IMG/VR virus record: IMGVR_UViG_3300020041_000048
Coordinates: 1 to 5,221 of that record
Strand: one strand, 5' to 3'
Length of the DNA: 5,221 bases
Source of the DNA: a virus
The translations under genes and the position numbers were made by a program. Of the stretch, positions 1 to 5,221 are shown piece by piece. How positions within the stretch are numbered: the stretch's first letter is position 1; the number at the start of each line of letters is the position of its first letter. The notes below the pieces were generated by a model. The model was not told the DNA's origin. It searched no databases and saw nothing but the letters and a program-made list of their open reading frames with translations.

Positions 1-121
1 GGCTTTCTTGAGGACATACCGGGCAACGTAAGCACAGGTTTCCCAGTTAACCTGACCAACCAAAACATAGCCGATAGGCTTCCGGATGAAAGGGGTGTCA
101 TACTCCCCTTTCTGTTCTACC
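1..121. repeat. Terminal redundancy, copy 1; exact duplicate of 5101-5221. Assembly overlap of a circular 5100-nt genome.
   Basis: Base-by-base comparison of 1-121 with 5101-5221 shows identity. A single ORF reads continuously through the junction. Confidence 0.95.
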
Positions 122-717
122 ACACTCCAGGCCTTTTGTAAAGCCTCAGAATAGTAATATCGATATCCAACGTCGCCGCGCTGGATATCCTGCACGGGAA
201 CAAGGTCATGCAAGTGGAGACCAAAAACTATTGCATGATAGTGAGGGCGAAAGGTGGTAGAGCCATACTCACCACACATAAAATACCGAATGTGGTCATC
301 CGGGAAGGCTTTCCGAAGGCGCTTCCAGAAAAGCTGCATGTGACGCTTCTCCAAACTGAGAGACTGCATCGCCTCTCCGGTCTCCGGATCAGAATACCAA
401 TGGCGAGGTACATGTTCTTCGTCATAGGTCAAAGTCAGGAAGTAAGCGGAATCATGATATTCGAGTTCCATCATACAGCGGTTAGCCCATTCACGAGAGC
501 GGGCTATGCGGCAGCCTTCACACTTGCCGCAAGGAATCTCAACCCAGTCAAGCCAGGTCTTTTCAGCGTAAGCAGAAATCTCGGGAACATCGGACGTACA
601 GATGCGACCTTTTCGCAATTCCAGGTGATGAACGCCATAGGGAACTATCTTCATTTCAGCCTTGCCATTCTTGGTAAAACCGACTTGAAAACCCTTAAGG
701 GGATGAAAACATGACAA
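1..717 (-). CDS. VP4: Replication initiation protein (Microviridae VP4 / HUH rolling-circle endonuclease), N-terminal 239 codons. It runs off the left edge and continues at 5100 on the circle.
   Basis: Manual minus-strand translation is open from 717 to 1: (TTG)SCFHPLKGFQVGFTKNGKAEMKIVPYGVHHLELRKGRICTSDVPEISAYAEKTWLDWVEIPCGKCEGCRIARSREWANRCMMELEYHDSAYFLTLTYDEEHVP...RYFMCGEYGSTTFRPHYHAIVFGLHLHD...VGQVNWETCAYVARYVLKKA. Hallmarks present: the CxHP N-terminus, PCGKCxGCR, FLTLTY (motif 1), RPHYHAI (HUH motif 2) and AYVARYVLKK (catalytic Tyr motif 3). There is no in-frame ATG after the upstream TAA. TTG at 717-715 has GGAG at 728-725 with a 7-nt spacer. The ORF track missed it because it has no stop inside the window. 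Confidence 0.9.
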   Translation of the reverse strand, partial: MSCFHPLKGFQVGFTKNGKAEMKIVPYGVHHLELRKGRICTSDVPEISAYAEKTWLDWVEIPCGKCEGCRIARSREWANRCMMELEYHDSAYFLTLTYDEEHVPRHWYSDPETGEAMQSLSLEKRHMQLFWKRLRKAFPDDHIRYFMCGEYGSTTFRPHYHAIVFGLHLHDLVPVQDIQRGDVGYRYYYSEALQKAWSVVEQKGEYDTPFIRKPIGYVLVGQVNWETCAYVARYVLKKA

Positions 718-785
718 ACAATCACTCCAATCGCTACACTCTTAGAGCCGCAAGCTTTTCCGTACTCGGGGCCAGGGAGGTGTCA

Positions 786-822
786 GTGGGAACCAATATA
801 TCAAGATAGTATTGGTTCCCAC
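786..822 (-). promoter_or_regulatory. Perfect 13-bp stem with 11-nt loop in the VP2-Rep intergenic region. Candidate replication origin (nick site) or transcript-end structure.
   Basis: Plus strand GTGGGAACCAATA (786-798) / loop tatcaagatag (799-809) / TATTGGTTCCCAC (810-822). On the sense (minus) strand the loop reads CTATCTTGATA followed by TATT. No T-run follows it on the sense strand, so it is not a canonical intrinsic terminator. Confidence 0.5.
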
Positions 823-847
823 ACCCTCCACCTGACAGCCTCAGTCG

Positions 848-1831
848 TCAGCGCTTTTTGCGCTTCTTTGAAGCATCCTTACCAGAAACAGCACCGGGCA
901 ACACGTTGGCAAAATAATCAAAGATGCTCTTACCCCAAGGTAAATTAGCATTTTGAATATCCTCAACAGCCTGAGTAGCAAGACCACCAAAAGCATTCCA
1001 ACCATTATTCGGGAAAGCTTCTTTGATATCAAACTCCTGTTTAAAGCCTGCCTGCTGTAAATCTTTATTCACCTCAGCATTAAAGGCGGCAATCTCCTTT
1101 TGCGTCATAGACTGCACGTCATAACCATACTTTTGCGCAGCAGCATGGATGGAGGCGGCAACCTTCTGAGCGGCGGCAGACTGGTCTGCGGCATACTTTG
1201 TACCAGCTAAATGAGCATCAGCAGTATAACGTTGAGCAGCGGCAGAAATAGTAGCCGTATTAAGCTGAGTTTGTGCCTGAAGTTCGGAAGTATATTTGGA
1301 CATAGCCGTATATTTATCCGCGATAGCCTGATTAGACTGAGCAGAAACACGGGTGCCCTCAAGGCTTAAAAAAGAACTAAGCAAACTCCCAAACAAGCCA
1401 GCAATAGCACCAGTGGCACTATTATCAACGCTGCCCATAGCACCGGACGGGGCACCGGAGCTAGCCGTTGCGCCAGAAGTAACAGCGGCACCGCTACCAC
1501 CAGTGACAGAAAGAACGGGATTAAGGCCAGCAGCAATTAGGTCACGCACCTCTCGTTGATGGGCGGTGGAGCTCATACGCTCCTGCCAATCTCTATTTTT
1601 TTGGGCCTCTTGACTGTTGTACCGACGCATGGTTTCGTACTGCGCTTCCTGCCACTTCCGGAGTTCTTCTGCCTGTTGAGCGCTGGCGGCGGTATTGCTG
1701 CCCGCAATACCTTGGAGGGCGCCAGTTATAGATCCAGTAGTGTTAAGTCGGTATTTATCAAGAGACCCTGGTCTTACAATAGCACCAGGGGAGGCAGTAG
1801 TCAAGGCCGATTTGGCCGAATTCATCGCCAT
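848..1831 (-). CDS. VP2: Minor capsid / DNA pilot protein VP2 (functional analogue of phiX174 H), 327 aa
   Basis: ORF track 848..1831. ATG at 1831 is preceded by AAGAGGTGA (GAGG 1842-1839, 7-nt spacer), 11 nt after the VP1 stop. It contains the pilot-protein signature STAHQREVRDLIAAGLNPVLS, followed by a G/S/A-rich linker, a hydrophobic segment GAIAGLFGSLLSSFLSL, an Ala/Gln-rich helical repeat region and a basic KKRKKR C-terminus. Confidence 0.88.
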   Translation of the reverse strand: MAMNSAKSALTTASPGAIVRPGSLDKYRLNTTGSITGALQGIAGSNTAASAQQAEELRKWQEAQYETMRRYNSQEAQKNRDWQERMSSTAHQREVRDLIAAGLNPVLSVTGGSGAAVTSGATASSGAPSGAMGSVDNSATGAIAGLFGSLLSSFLSLEGTRVSAQSNQAIADKYTAMSKYTSELQAQTQLNTATISAAAQRYTADAHLAGTKYAADQSAAAQKVAASIHAAAQKYGYDVQSMTQKEIAAFNAEVNKDLQQAGFKQEFDIKEAFPNNGWNAFGGLATQAVEDIQNANLPWGKSIFDYFANVLPGAVSGKDASKKRKKR

Positions 1832-1842
1832 AATCTCACCTC

Positions 1843-3534
1843 TTAGTGATGGTCGATAAGGCCAGGGATACTATACATAGGCATAGGCCGAGTAGCCTTA
1901 CACTGGATGTAGAGATCGGCAAACATCTGATTAGACGCACTAGAAGTAACAGCAAGTACACGGTCAACATTGGTCTTATCCTCACGAATCCACGCATCAG
2001 ACAACTTGGGGAGCTGGGTATACTCGTCGGCAAGATGCCAAACATCAAGGGAGGCCGGAGCCTTGGAACGCATTTCAGCAGCAACACGGGACGGCTTGTA
2101 ACGGTAATCGGCCCAGGCTTCCTGATAACCAAAAACCTCATCATCCTGGGCGGTGCCCTGGGCGTAAATTTCCTTGTTCAGAATAGGCTGCTCACCGATA
2201 TTGGCGAAAACCGGGAAATAGTAGTCCAGGCGGTCACGACGAGACCAAAAACGCTCAAGGCCCTGCTGATAGGTATGGTCATAGCGGGCGACCATGATGC
2301 CGATCACAAAACCATGCTCAACAAAAGACTTAATGAAATCGCCGTGAACATCGGTAGTAACAGAAAAGGCAGCCGTATCACCGAGAGGAGTACCATCAGC
2401 CTGGGTTGCAGAGTTCTGCACCACCTGATTGATATTAACAGGTATACGGTTGCCGCCAAGATACTCAGGACGCTGGAGGCGAGCATCAGGACTGGTAACA
2501 CCGAAGTGAGATTTAAGGATTTCAATGTAACGAGTACCTCCTCTAGCGTCTTTCTCATAAAGTTTCTGGACCTGAAAGGCCATGCGCAACTGGTTGATAG
2601 TGGCCGCCGTCACAGAACCAGACTGAAGGGCCCACAGGTTGTCAAAGTACAACGTACCATCACGGGAAGAACCGGAGCCAAAAGACATACCGGTAGAGGT
2701 AGAATTAACCTCAGTAGCAGAGGCACCAGTACTGCCAAAGTCGAAAGTCTGCTTAATACTAGAATAATCGGTATTGCTCTCAACACCAGAAGCCCAGGCA
2801 GACATAGGGGACTTAAAGAGAGAATGATCAACACGATCGGCAAGAGAAACAACGGGAAGGTTACCACCCTGGCCGACAGGAATGGTTACATCAGGGCCTT
2901 TCTGCGGAGCAGGCAGAGCGGAAGTGAAGTAGTCATGGAACTTGGCGGCCTTGAAGGGCATACCGCCTTTGACAACATCGGTGATATAGTTGGTACCATT
3001 GGAACCTGCAAGGGTAGCATCATCCACAGGGATGTTGAGGGGGTCAGAGAGGTTCTCATCACGGAACCACTCATTCATGATGAGGGCGTAGGCGCGGAAG
3101 GGGAGGGCATTAACAGAGAGGTTGGCAACACCAGTAGGGATGCCCATGTAGTCGGCAATGGAACCAATAGACCAGCCACCAGAGGGCGCAGTTACCTGGG
3201 GGACAGAGTACTCAGTCTTAGGAATCCAAGCGGACTGTGTATTCTCACCCATCAGCTCACGCCAATGCTGCCAGACAATACGGTTAGGCACGAAGTAAAA
3301 ATAGGTGTCGAGATAAAGATTGTCCATCATGGGAGTGAGCAAGGTTTGGAGGCGGGCCACCATAGAAGTCTTCAACTGGAAAGTGTCTCCAGGTAAAACT
3401 TCATCGACATAGAAGGGGATAACGTCTCCGACGTTAAAACTGAGTTTAACGCTATGATCACGCCGAAAAGTGCTACGAGCAATATCAAGGTTAGTAGGAT
3501 TAAGAGCAAATCTTGTATTTTCATTACGAGACAA
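1843..3534 (-). CDS. VP1: Major capsid protein VP1 (Microviridae F-protein family). It is 563 aa from TTG 3534; the maximal ORF extends to GTG 3606 (587 aa).
   Basis: ORF track 1843..3606. Family hallmarks: FALNPTNLDIARSTFRRDHSVKLSFNVGDVIPFYVDEVLPGDTF, RLQRPEYLGG, FGYQEAWADYRYKPSRV. TTG at 3534-3532 is in frame and has GGAGG (3546-3542) 7 nt upstream. The resulting N-terminus MSRNENTRFALNP resembles typical gokushovirus VP1 N-termini. GTG 3606 has no SD and lies inside a hairpin. Confidence 0.92.
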   Translation of the reverse strand: MSRNENTRFALNPTNLDIARSTFRRDHSVKLSFNVGDVIPFYVDEVLPGDTFQLKTSMVARLQTLLTPMMDNLYLDTYFYFVPNRIVWQHWRELMGENTQSAWIPKTEYSVPQVTAPSGGWSIGSIADYMGIPTGVANLSVNALPFRAYALIMNEWFRDENLSDPLNIPVDDATLAGSNGTNYITDVVKGGMPFKAAKFHDYFTSALPAPQKGPDVTIPVGQGGNLPVVSLADRVDHSLFKSPMSAWASGVESNTDYSSIKQTFDFGSTGASATEVNSTSTGMSFGSGSSRDGTLYFDNLWALQSGSVTAATINQLRMAFQVQKLYEKDARGGTRYIEILKSHFGVTSPDARLQRPEYLGGNRIPVNINQVVQNSATQADGTPLGDTAAFSVTTDVHGDFIKSFVEHGFVIGIMVARYDHTYQQGLERFWSRRDRLDYYFPVFANIGEQPILNKEIYAQGTAQDDEVFGYQEAWADYRYKPSRVAAEMRSKAPASLDVWHLADEYTQLPKLSDAWIREDKTNVDRVLAVTSSASNQMFADLYIQCKATRPMPMYSIPGLIDHH

Positions 3535-3569
3535 GTTAATACCTCCAGTCAGTAACGGTTGTTCAAAAG

Positions 3570-3590
3570 GAGGGGCCCATGGGGCCCCTC
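3570..3590 (-). terminator. GC-rich hairpin (9-bp stem, 3-nt loop) followed by CTTTTG on the sense strand. Possibly a leaky terminator or an mRNA/ssDNA structural element upstream of VP1.
   Basis: Plus strand GAGGGGCCC (3570-3578) AT-G GGGCCCCTC (3582-3590). Sense strand reads GAGGGGCCC-CAT-GGGCCCCTC-CTTTTGAAC. The T-run is only 4 nt, so terminator assignment is weak. Confidence 0.3.
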
Positions 3591-3604
3591 GCTCTCTGTT
3601 GTTC

Positions 3605-3625
3605 ACACGGCCAGGGCGGCCGTGT
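3605..3625 (-). other. GC-rich hairpin (8-bp stem, 5-nt loop) in the VP3-VP1 intergenic region
   Basis: ACACGGCC (3605-3612) / AGGGC / GGCCGTGT (3618-3625). It overlaps the GTG at 3606 that opens the maximal VP1 ORF. Confidence 0.45.
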
Positions 3626-3668
3626 AGGCTACTTTAATCAGATTCAGCCAATGTCAGGAATATGGAAT

Positions 3669-4181
3669 TTAACCAGCGGGTGAGGCTGGCGCGGGGTCTG
3701 TCTCACCTCCTTTCGGGCCCTGTGAGGCCGCTGGCGGCTCACCAGCGAGATTTTGAGAGGCGGGTGGTGTAACCATACCCATAGCCTCCAACCAGCTCTC
3801 AGAGCCTGCCTGGGCGAGCCAAGCATGGAAAGATTGGCCGAACTTCTCACGGGTTTCGAGGGGTAAGCTCATAAACGTCTGCTCGGCCTCTATCATGTGA
3901 TTGAGCAGCCCGGCATAGGTCTGGGGCATCTGGCTGAAATCACCAAACATGCCTTGCACCTTTTGCAGGGCGGCAGTATCACCAGCATTGAACCTGTCCA
4001 TGATTTTATGGAGGTCAACGGAATCTTTGTGGCTCTGGATGAAAGCGTAGAGGTCCTCTTTACCACTCTCCTTGAGGGCCATAACGCCGAAGCGGTCGAA
4101 CTCGGGGGAATAGAGAATCTTTTCGCCGGAGCCGGGCTCAGAGCAAAAATGCTCCTGATCACGATGCCAAGTCTGAAACAT
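3669..4181 (-). CDS. VP3: Internal scaffolding protein VP3, 170 aa
   Basis: ORF track 3669..4181. ATG 4181 has AAGGAGGA upstream (GGAGG 4193-4189, 7-nt spacer) and overlaps the upstream stop as TGATG. The core HKIMDRFNAGDTAALQKVQGMFGDFSQMPQTYAGLLNHMIEAEQTFMSLPLETREKFGQSFHAWL fits the gokushovirus scaffold pattern as I recall it (xGDF..mP.t..e.....i.Ae..F..LP...R..F). It sits immediately upstream of VP1, as expected. Confidence 0.82.
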   Translation of the reverse strand: MFQTWHRDQEHFCSEPGSGEKILYSPEFDRFGVMALKESGKEDLYAFIQSHKDSVDLHKIMDRFNAGDTAALQKVQGMFGDFSQMPQTYAGLLNHMIEAEQTFMSLPLETREKFGQSFHAWLAQAGSESWLEAMGMVTPPASQNLAGEPPAASQGPKGGETDPAPASPAG

Positions 4182-4450
4182 CAGACATCCTCCTTCTGCT
4201 GCATAGAGCGGAGAACCTCCGCGCCGTCGGAAATGAGCTCGTGGAGCTGGGCCGGAATGAGAACACCTTTATCGGAATCGAACTCACCAATCCGGAAAAG
4301 CTGGAAATCGGAAGCGTGAGTAAAGAGCACGCCCTTAGATTCCATAATGGCGTTGGCAAAGTTGCGAGCAGCGATATAGTCATTCTGCTCAGTGTTGAGG
4401 CCGAAGAAACCGGAACGCAGATCACGAATAGCATAAACGTTAAGCATCAT
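4181..4450 (-). CDS. Small conserved gokushovirus nonstructural protein (VP5/ORF5-position family, function unknown), 89 aa
   Basis: This is the 133-aa track ORF 4181..4582 trimmed to ATGATG at 4450, which has GGAGG (4464-4460) 9 nt upstream. MMLNVYAIRDLRSGFFGLNTEQNDYIAARNFANAIMESKGVLFTHASDFQLFRIGEFDSDKGVL matches my recollection of a recurring microvirus small-protein pattern (Y.I.D.....F......N...A.R.F........H..DF.L..IGEFD...G). The 44 residues upstream of that ATG are W/S/F-rich and have no SD. Confidence 0.65.
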   Translation of the reverse strand: MMLNVYAIRDLRSGFFGLNTEQNDYIAARNFANAIMESKGVLFTHASDFQLFRIGEFDSDKGVLIPAQLHELISDGAEVLRSMQQKEDV

Positions 4451-4625
4451 TTTTATCATCCTCCAAAAAACCAGAAAGCTCAATGAGCCGAATTTGCAGT
4501 TCCAGGGCGAGGAACTCATAAAAATCGAGCTCCATATCGAGAGAGCGCCAAACTTTGGCGGCCAGCTCGTAACAGTCGGCATCGAGATTCAGCCGGACAC
4601 AGACGGTAGCACGTTCATCATTCAC
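4440..4625 (-). CDS. Hypothetical 61-aa acidic protein, no family recognised
   Basis: ORF track 4440..4625. The GTG start at 4625-4623 is embedded in ATGTGA, the last codon plus stop of the upstream peptide gene. GGAGG (4639-4635) lies 9 nt upstream. The ORF fills what would otherwise be a 171-nt gap in a very compact genome, and its 3' end overlaps the next gene's start by 11 nt. Confidence 0.5.
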   Translation of the reverse strand: MNDERATVCVRLNLDADCYELAAKVWRSLDMELDFYEFLALELQIRLIELSGFLEDDKNDA

Positions 4626-4735
4626 ATCCTAATACCTCCGCGATAGATTTTAGGGTTCACATTGATACGCTTGGAATTGACGGCGGTGTGACGAAAAACC
4701 TGCCTATCCTGAGAACGCTTCATTTTTCGAGCCAT
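4622..4735 (-). CDS. Small arginine/lysine-rich DNA-binding (packaging) peptide, 37 aa; J-protein / gokushovirus ORF8-like
   Basis: Not in the ORF track because it is too short. Manual translation: ATG 4735-4733, 2 nt after the Rep stop TAA (4740-4738), with GGGAG (4748-4744) 8 nt upstream. Product is MARKMKRSQDRQVFRHTAVNSKRINVNPKIYRGGIRM, stop TGA 4624-4622. A basic N-terminus, the FRxTA motif and the C-terminal RGGIR(M/L) are typical, as I recall them, of the small basic proteins found in many gokushoviruses. Confidence 0.75.
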   Translation of the reverse strand: MARKMKRSQDRQVFRHTAVNSKRINVNPKIYRGGIRM

Positions 4736-4737
4736 GA

Positions 4738-5221
4738 TTACAACTCCCTTCTCAAATTTTTTATACGGTTATGGAGCACGCGCTCCTGGGTCTCGAGAAT
4801 TTCTTCGTAAGTCATAGTAGACTGGGCCAGCTTGGCCTTCTTGCCTTCCTCGGCAAAGTGCTTGCGCTTGGCCTTAATCTCAGCCATAAGCTCAGGTTGT
4901 TCCAAATCAAAAAGCTTATCGAAATACTTAGGGGGACGAATCTTGCGGCCACCATCAGGAGTGGAGATAGAAATAGTATCATACTCCATGCACTCGGGAT
5001 GGTCTTCGTACCATTGGCGGCCAATACCAGGACGGCGGGACATATCGACATACTCTGGTTGGATGTTAAACGTCTGGTAGACATCAGCATCGGGACCAGA
5101 GGCTTTCTTGAGGACATACCGGGCAACGTAAGCACAGGTTTCCCAGTTAACCTGACCAACCAAAACATAGCCGATAGGCTTCCGGATGAAAGGGGTGTCA
5201 TACTCCCCTTTCTGTTCTACC
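4738..5221 (-). CDS. VP4: Replication initiation protein VP4, C-terminal portion (same gene as 1..717; 5101-5221 duplicates 1-121). Full CDS is complement(join(4738..5100,1..717)), 359 aa.
   Basis: The track ORF 4738..5163 begins at an internal TTG only because the window ends; the frame is open to 5221 and in phase with 1..717 (717+363 = 1080 nt). Sequence: ...VGQVNWETCAYVARYVLKKASGPDADVYQTFNIQPEYVDMSRRPGIGRQWYEDHPECMEYDTISISTPDGGRKIRPPKYFDKLFDLEQPELMAEIKAKRKHF..., a typical VP4 C-terminal domain (SRRPGIG, PPKYFDK). Confidence 0.9.
   Translation of the reverse strand, partial: VEQKGEYDTPFIRKPIGYVLVGQVNWETCAYVARYVLKKASGPDADVYQTFNIQPEYVDMSRRPGIGRQWYEDHPECMEYDTISISTPDGGRKIRPPKYFDKLFDLEQPELMAEIKAKRKHFAEEGKKAKLAQSTMTYEEILETQERVLHNRIKNLRREL
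5101..5221. repeat. Terminal redundancy, copy 2 (identical to 1-121)
   Basis: Exact 121-nt identity with the window start. Confidence 0.95.

Follow-up and report, generated by a model that had tools for sequence, protein, structure and literature searches.

A small coding gene of one gut gokushovirus lineage, inserted between the J-like and VP5 genes, with a predicted ribbon-helix-helix-like fold

Few phages are more common in human and animal guts than microviruses, whose core genes number only six or seven. Their small accessory ORFs are few, nearly all lack an assigned function, and they are frequently left unannotated. We asked whether one such ORF, which we call ORF61, is a real gene and what its product might do. 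The DNA analyzed here (the window; 5,221 nt, positions 1 to 5,221 of IMG/VR record IMGVR_UViG_3300020041_000048) comprises the full 5,100-nt genome of a gokushovirus (Microviridae) plus a direct terminal repeat of 121 nt, and every gene in it lies on the minus strand. The VP4 initiator gene is split by the linearization point. ORF61 (positions 4440 to 4625, minus strand) has as its upstream neighbor a gene for a basic J-like/VP8 peptide of 37 amino acids (4622 to 4735; phrog_10695, E = 1.2e-5; charge of +9.6), which binds and condenses DNA. Its downstream neighbor encodes the 89-amino-acid VP5 (4181 to 4450; Pfam Phage_ORF5, PF20577, E = 1.4e-17; phrog_1670, E = 3.4e-23), an analogue of protein C of phiX174. 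Genes for the VP3 scaffold (3669 to 4181), the VP1 capsid protein (1843 to 3606), and the VP2 pilot protein (848 to 1831) complete the minus-strand set. A related IMG/VR record, L012 (IMGVR_UViG_3300020029_000002; 10,492 nt), has a pair of related genome copies, spaced by about 5.15 kb.

ORF61 runs for 61 codons from a GTG start (4625 to 4623) to a TAA stop (4442 to 4440). Its start overlaps the TGA that ends the J-like gene in a shared GTGA (4622 to 4625), a coupling junction kept in the window and in its three GenBank relatives, and an in-frame TAG two codons 5′ of the GTG makes this the earliest possible start. A GGAGG Shine-Dalgarno sequence (4635 to 4639, minus strand; spacer of 9 nt) lies within codons of the J-like gene that specify RGG. 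Although it shows no variation across 12 aligned loci, the J coding sequence constrains the same bases, and the J-like C terminus that contains these codons, YRGGIR, is also found in outgroups; the GGAGG is therefore not independent evidence of a gene. The 3′ end of ORF61 (4440 to 4464, minus strand) is likewise shared with the start signals of VP5: the VP5 GGAGG (4464 to 4460), 9 nt upstream of the VP5 start, lies within ORF61, and VP5 begins with two consecutive ATG codons (4445 to 4450), so that the genes overlap by 11 nt from the first (4450 to 4448) or by 8 nt from the second. The predicted product is a 7-kDa protein with 15 Asp/Glu against 6 Lys/Arg residues, a pI of 4.08, and a charge of −9.5. 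Each of the features for which the original prediction singled out this ORF (its length, the overlap of GTG and upstream stop, the GGAGG 9 nt upstream, the 11-nt downstream overlap, and the acidic composition) is correct on inspection of the sequence. Base composition and third-position usage in ORF61 are the same as in the rest of the genome. Given that 56 ORFs of at least 30 amino acids occur in the window, the length of ORF61 alone is not significant; significance comes instead from its pattern of substitution.

The relatives available for this purpose were three GenBank genomes (87 to 90% nucleotide identity), 25 IMG/VR loci, one contig binned in a metagenome-assembled genome (MAG), and 247 protein clusters. 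Codon positions were compared among the 16 loci that carry all 61 codons intact (15 relatives and the window), all of which differ in nucleotide sequence. Variable columns fell at 35 of 61 third positions, compared with 15 first and 9 second positions (chi-square P = 9e-7), and against the most divergent relatives third positions took 14 to 19 of the 19 to 29 differences. The pooled Nei-Gojobori dN/dS was 0.086 in the ORF61 frame, close to the values of the J-like gene (0.04) and VP5 (0.07); in the other frames of the region it was 1.0 and 2.7 (sense) and 1.1, 0.23, and 4.4 (antisense). The dN/dS comparison had been suggested with the original prediction, and it places the constraint in ORF61's own frame and not in the frame that would extend VP5, for which the ratio is 1.0. 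Protein identity stays at 91 to 95% across the deepest split of a tree built from the flanks, and an insertion of five codons in one cluster (P0114) is in frame. ORF61 is thus protein coding and under purifying selection, and we consider it very probably a real, translated gene. The proposed coupled chain from the J-like gene through ORF61 and VP5 to VP3 stands, with the substitution pattern establishing that ORF61 is a coding member of it.

Could the frame instead be open by chance and conserved for another reason, such as an element acting in cis as DNA or RNA, or an overlapping N-terminal extension of VP5? Several observations point that way. Synonymous diversity is low in the first 30 nt of ORF61, and the last 36 nt are invariant in the 16 copies; a stretch of 70 nt is invariant among the three GenBank relatives; one of these, MG945467, is annotated with a long form of VP5; and the ORF61 frame has a stop at codon 4 in one relative and is destroyed in four others. 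However, the invariant ends are accounted for by the two coupling junctions, where the same bases serve two genes. Changes concentrate at the third positions of ORF61, and the extended VP5 (a 133-amino-acid ORF, 4181 to 4582, minus strand) was rejected because family matches begin only at its residue 45, most relatives stop the extension after 26 to 33 codons, and its dN/dS is about 1. A structured RNA was likewise set aside, since folding of the region is no better than that of shuffled sequence (z = 0.38). Stop codons in close relatives, or constraint confined to the alternative frame, had been named in advance as signs against a gene: the first is seen in part, in the relative with the stop at codon 4 and the four with a destroyed frame, and the second is not. 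Since the constrained frame is ORF61's own, these five broken copies indicate that ORF61 is dispensable rather than noncoding. The reading of ORF61 as no gene at all is largely refuted by the codon-position pattern, and we regard it as highly improbable.

A replication origin within ORF61 was also considered. An AT-rich motif in ORF61, CTCGATTTTTAT, resembles the origin core of phiX174. This candidate was dropped in favor of a likelier origin hairpin elsewhere (786 to 822), which also speaks against ORF61 being conserved as a cis-acting element. That hairpin is a perfect 13-bp inverted repeat (786 to 798 and 810 to 822) in the VP2-VP4 intergenic region, set within a longer imperfect palindrome (770 to 835 of the window). 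Within the window, no repeat was found that links the ORF61 region to intergenic regions, and a scan for promoters and terminators returned matches only at chance level.

Searches for relatives of the protein bear out the earlier statement that its family is not recognizable: ORF61 is a strict orphan. No family match was found in scans of Pfam, PHROG, NCBIfam, and PADLOC. A phmmer search of 1.84 billion representative proteins (50% clusters of about 15 billion proteins) matched only ORF61's own cluster and a 59-amino-acid frame-fused derivative, while tblastn against 50,697 phage records found ORF61 only in the three close GenBank genomes, which annotate neither ORF61 nor the J-like gene. In one of these records, MG945467, VP5 is annotated as an over-long ORF of 134 amino acids (locus L001, 3507 to 3911) and VP3 carries an extension of 236 amino acids. 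Of the 247 protein clusters that contain ORF61 homologues, the best 120 are all at least 91% identical; some homologues, identical proteins among them, sit on contigs as long as 4.67 Mb. Among species-representative genomes, a single contig (5.5 kb, binned in a Clostridiales MAG) carries ORF61. A prophage of the Enterogokushovirus type was considered and rejected, with no dif-like site in the window and no matches in 5,426 E. coli genomes.

In the next-nearest phages VP5 is only about 50% identical and ORF61 is missing: little separates the J-like gene from VP5, 16 nt in MG945237 and 57 nt in PP511569. Judged as a possible gokushovirus core gene, ORF61 matches no model and is absent from both of these genomes. 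Because the outgroups pass from J straight into VP5, ORF61 is best seen as a lineage-specific insertion in an accessory slot, confined to a single narrow group of gut gokushoviruses. In Microviridae, the mean length of small accessory proteins without an assigned function is about 65 amino acids (Kirchberger, Martinez and Ochman 2022, PMC9239249), and ORF61 resembles the accessory ORFs of that study in being short, restricted to a lineage, placed between core genes, and oriented like the other genes. It differs from them in that its coding status is demonstrated by substitutions, a fold is proposed for it, and the turnover of its slot is documented.

That turnover is considerable. Residues 1 to 52 of ORF61 are retained in 23 of 28 relatives; in the other 5 of 28 the copy is not intact, as a result of a stop codon, a deletion, or expansion into 37-nt tandem repeats. 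The full 61-amino-acid form is intact at 16 loci (15 relatives and the window), and two relatives have a 59-amino-acid form with a shortened tail. In three relatives residues 1 to 55 are followed by a different acidic tail (…EKEEAT) and then by an insert of 100 to 280 nt, and in two others residues 1 to 52 are followed by a repeat array. As for the broken copies, the stop at codon 4 is found in one GenBank record, marked UNVERIFIED; one relative has a frame break after residue 36; and three relatives lack codons 3 to 23 and have in-frame TAG stops. The state of ORF61 differs even between genomes with near-identical flanks (intact in L006, truncated in L020, broken in L027), and the broken forms have diverged from each other. 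ORF61 is therefore dispensable, at least in some settings.

The breaks trace to codons 33 to 40 (CTCGATTTTTATGAGTTCCTCGCC; 4506 to 4529, minus strand), a unit that alignment, translations, and Tandem Repeats Finder identify as expanded into a 37-nt array in relatives. The array, with a 14-nt subunit (ATTTTTACYAGTTT) visibly derived from ORF61 codons 32 to 40, is present in 2.5 to 3 copies and either breaks or trails ORF61 (L027, 700 to 810; L019, 625 to 717; and also L020, L023, L024, L026, and L028); such 14/37-nt direct repeats thus occur in relatives that have lost ORF61. It looks like decay driven by slippage, although the 92 to 94% identity of the array unit over several genomes means that it may have a role in cis.

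Other contents of the slot are of a different kind. At locus L016 (IMGVR_UViG_3300045988_004030), an insert of about 280 nt separates ORF61 from VP5 and holds an ORF of about 57 amino acids with AAGGAGG and an ATG start (3192 to 3365, minus strand of the locus), which is antisense to the phage genes. This ORF is followed by a perfect hairpin, GAAGAAGCAAC…GTTGCTTCTTC; only the 3′ end of an insert of this type and the hairpin remain in L017 and L023. The antisense ORF has no match in Pfam, NCBIfam, or PADLOC, and its best PHROG match has an E value of 0.014. Since the genes of microviruses are reported to lie all in one orientation (PMC9239249), an antisense gene here would be unusual. In a more distant phage, Dulem virus 162 (PP511417), the J/VP5 slot is occupied by an unrelated hypothetical ORF of 81 amino acids (L032, 659 to 904) that overlaps its neighbors by 4 nt on each side, which indicates that the cargo of the slot varies between gokushovirus lineages. 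The J/VP5 junction is a fast-turnover slot, with loss, tail swaps, repeat expansion, an antisense cassette, and unrelated cargo.

What kind of protein does ORF61 encode? The original prediction drew attention to a pattern like that of ribbon-helix-helix (RHH) proteins. Two AlphaFold2 runs, one from the single sequence (pLDDT of 72) and one from a shallow alignment of 44 sequences (pLDDT of 69), both gave two helices, at residues 16 to 28 and 35 to 57/60 (codons 16 to 57, 4455 to 4580, minus strand), with a free N terminus of low confidence. The best rows of the fold search are type II antitoxins (MazE-mt9, ParD, TacA, PrpA, KacA, and Rv0298), and about 21 of the top 50 rows for the second model are RHH proteins (including omega, PutA-RHH, CopA_SO, KacA, and YiiF) at root mean square deviations of 7 to 10 Å; the same helix pair also matches TraM. 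Among ESM-Atlas neighbors of residues 1 to 52, 9 of the 10 best named ones belong to RHH families or their clan (RHH_1, RHH_3, RHH_6, and TraY), with scores of 0.86 to 0.89, which, being below 0.9, serve as leads only.

The N-terminal strand of an RHH fold does not appear in the monomer models, in which pLDDT is low over this segment, and we infer it from residue conservation in codons 5 to 12 (R-A-T-V-C-V-R-L; 4590 to 4613, minus strand). Across 119 clusters, V8, V10, and L12 never change, T7 and C9 do (C9 to R, S, L, F, or P), and 118 of the 119 retain R5 and R11. Such alternation suits a strand that buries one face and keeps the other for function, and it agrees with what is expected of an RHH strand, in which core hydrophobic residues alternate with outward polar or basic ones.

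We compared ORF61 with the RHH (MetJ/Arc/CopG) superfamily, as represented by CopG of pMV158, omega of pSM19035, Arc and Mnt of P22, ParD, TacA, and MazE-mt9. Like these proteins, which span about 45 to 60 residues, ORF61 has a predicted strand, a 13-residue helix, a short turn, and a second helix; its putative strand alternates between buried and exposed residues with Arg and Thr facing outward; and its structural and language-model neighbors are RHH proteins. Unlike them, it is without detectable sequence or profile similarity to the superfamily. It has no match to an RHH family in Pfam (E ≤ 1) or NCBIfam, searches of the PDB by single sequence and by profile returned nothing at E ≤ 10, and a Foldseek search found nothing. 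Alignment by hhalign to an RHH_1 profile gave a probability of 0.1%, a weak negative given that the profile, 19 sequences from hits in Clostridia-class genomes, is narrow. The turn between the helices also differs, being S28-L29-D30 (109 clusters have D at position 30, and 9 have N) where RHH proteins usually have G-x-S/T/N. An aspartate can cap a helix, yet it is unusual beside a phosphate. Finally, helix B runs for about 23 to 26 residues, roughly double what is usual in RHH proteins, and leads into an acidic tail. The RHH-like pattern thus gains weak but concordant support from the fold search, the ESM-Atlas neighbors, and the alternating strand, while every test of sequence or profile similarity went against it. 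On balance the fold is probably RHH-like, a judgment we make with moderate confidence and as one of resemblance rather than of demonstrated membership.

The strongly negative charge of the product had been taken to fit a protein-binding, DNA-mimic, or assembly role better than DNA binding. The acidity is real, but the argument drawn from it is weak: acidity is common among RHH antitoxins, which nonetheless bind their operators through the ribbon, and in its overall acidity ORF61 is like them. The DNA-mimic and assembly-chaperone roles are conjectural.

The explanation that we favor, again with moderate confidence, is that ORF61 is a coding accessory gene for an RHH-like dimeric regulator or partner-binding protein at the J-like/VP5 junction. 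Under this model, ORF61 would have been inserted at that junction in one narrow lineage of gut gokushoviruses, would be translated from a polycistronic message through GTGA coupling to the J-like gene, and would pass ribosomes on to VP5 through the 11-nt overlap. Residues 5 to 12 would form a strand that pairs with that of a second subunit, followed by helix A (16 to 28), helix B (35 to 57), and the acidic tail; the two hydrophobic faces of helix B make dimerization most likely. In the putative homodimer, the two-stranded ribbon would display R5, T7, residue 9, and R11. Within the infected cell, such a protein might act as a small regulator by binding to DNA, by using helix B and the acidic tail to bind a partner protein, or by doing both, and it would be a component neither of the virion nor of its assembly. 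The relatives that have lost it amid near-identical flanks would then reflect a gene that is beneficial and nonessential.

That the protein acts specifically as a DNA-binding regulator in the manner of CopG or omega is a possibility that we hold tentatively, by analogy. CopG of pMV158 is encoded in one operon with an HUH rolling-circle initiator, and ORF61 likewise shares an operon with such an initiator; unlike CopG, it lies downstream of the initiator rather than upstream. It further differs from CopG-type repressors in that no operator was found for it, and its ribbon, dimer, and DNA binding are putative. More speculatively, and in our view improbably, ORF61 could be the first RHH regulator of Microviridae, a CopG/omega-like dimer on the replicative form, maybe at or near its own coding DNA, that tunes the initiator and late genes toward a persistent, noncollapsing infection; alternatively, it could be an orphan antitoxin against an abortive-infection toxin of the host. 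We found no literature linking RHH proteins to Microviridae.

The behavior of the J/VP5 slot as a hot spot favors a reading in terms of counter-defense, in which ORF61 would be a protein-binding conflict gene. The product, RHH-like or simply helical, would be an orphan antitoxin-like or antidefense protein whose helix B and acidic tail neutralize a toxin or defense protein of the host, or a protein of a competing phage, without binding DNA. The top structural matches are indeed type II antitoxins, which ORF61 also resembles in acidity, and both its presence or absence among near-identical flanks (L006, L020, and L027) and the alternative cargo of the same slot in relatives are typical of phage accessory and conflict loci. 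However, type II antitoxins such as ParD and TacA have an adjacent cognate toxin, whereas ORF61 adjoins only core genes (phrog_10695 and PF20577), which are also found in phages without it, and PADLOC returned no match. Furthermore, the tail is swapped or shortened in seven relatives that retain the core, and the near-invariant R5 and R11 on the putative ribbon fit the reading of DNA better. Taken together, this reading seems to us rather doubtful.

A role tied to the neighboring core genes is less probable still. ORF61 adjoins and is coupled to both VP8 and VP5 and is similar to them in size, and its charge is nearly opposite to that of the J-like peptide (−9.5 versus +9.6). It might accordingly serve as a charge-neutralizing chaperone that is made in equimolar amounts with VP8 and keeps this basic peptide off host nucleic acids until packaging; the GTGA coupling would yield near-stoichiometric synthesis of the two. 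Yet ORF61 has no homology to VP8 or VP5, and most gokushoviruses, the nearest outgroups included, keep VP8 and VP5 without it. In L024 and L026, moreover, ORF61 is broken while J is 100% identical, and the conserved residues of ORF61 are mainly those of the hydrophobic core and the two arginines, not the acidic ones alone. We therefore think a chaperone of this kind very unlikely and retain the RHH-like regulator or partner-binding protein as the better account.

With ORF61, one small unannotated microvirus ORF is established as coding and given a candidate fold, and the J/VP5 slot offers a handle on how 5-kb phages gain and lose regulatory or conflict functions. Should ORF61 prove to encode an RHH regulator, Microviridae would gain a first dedicated regulator of transcription or copy number, one that could bear on the persistence of gokushoviruses in their hosts. 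One further feature of the locus is a near-perfect palindrome, GCCGCCAAAGTTTGGCGC, at 4552 to 4569 of the window (ORF61 codons 22 to 27), which is constant in the three GenBank relatives, bears synonymous changes in the IMG/VR loci, and is probably incidental.
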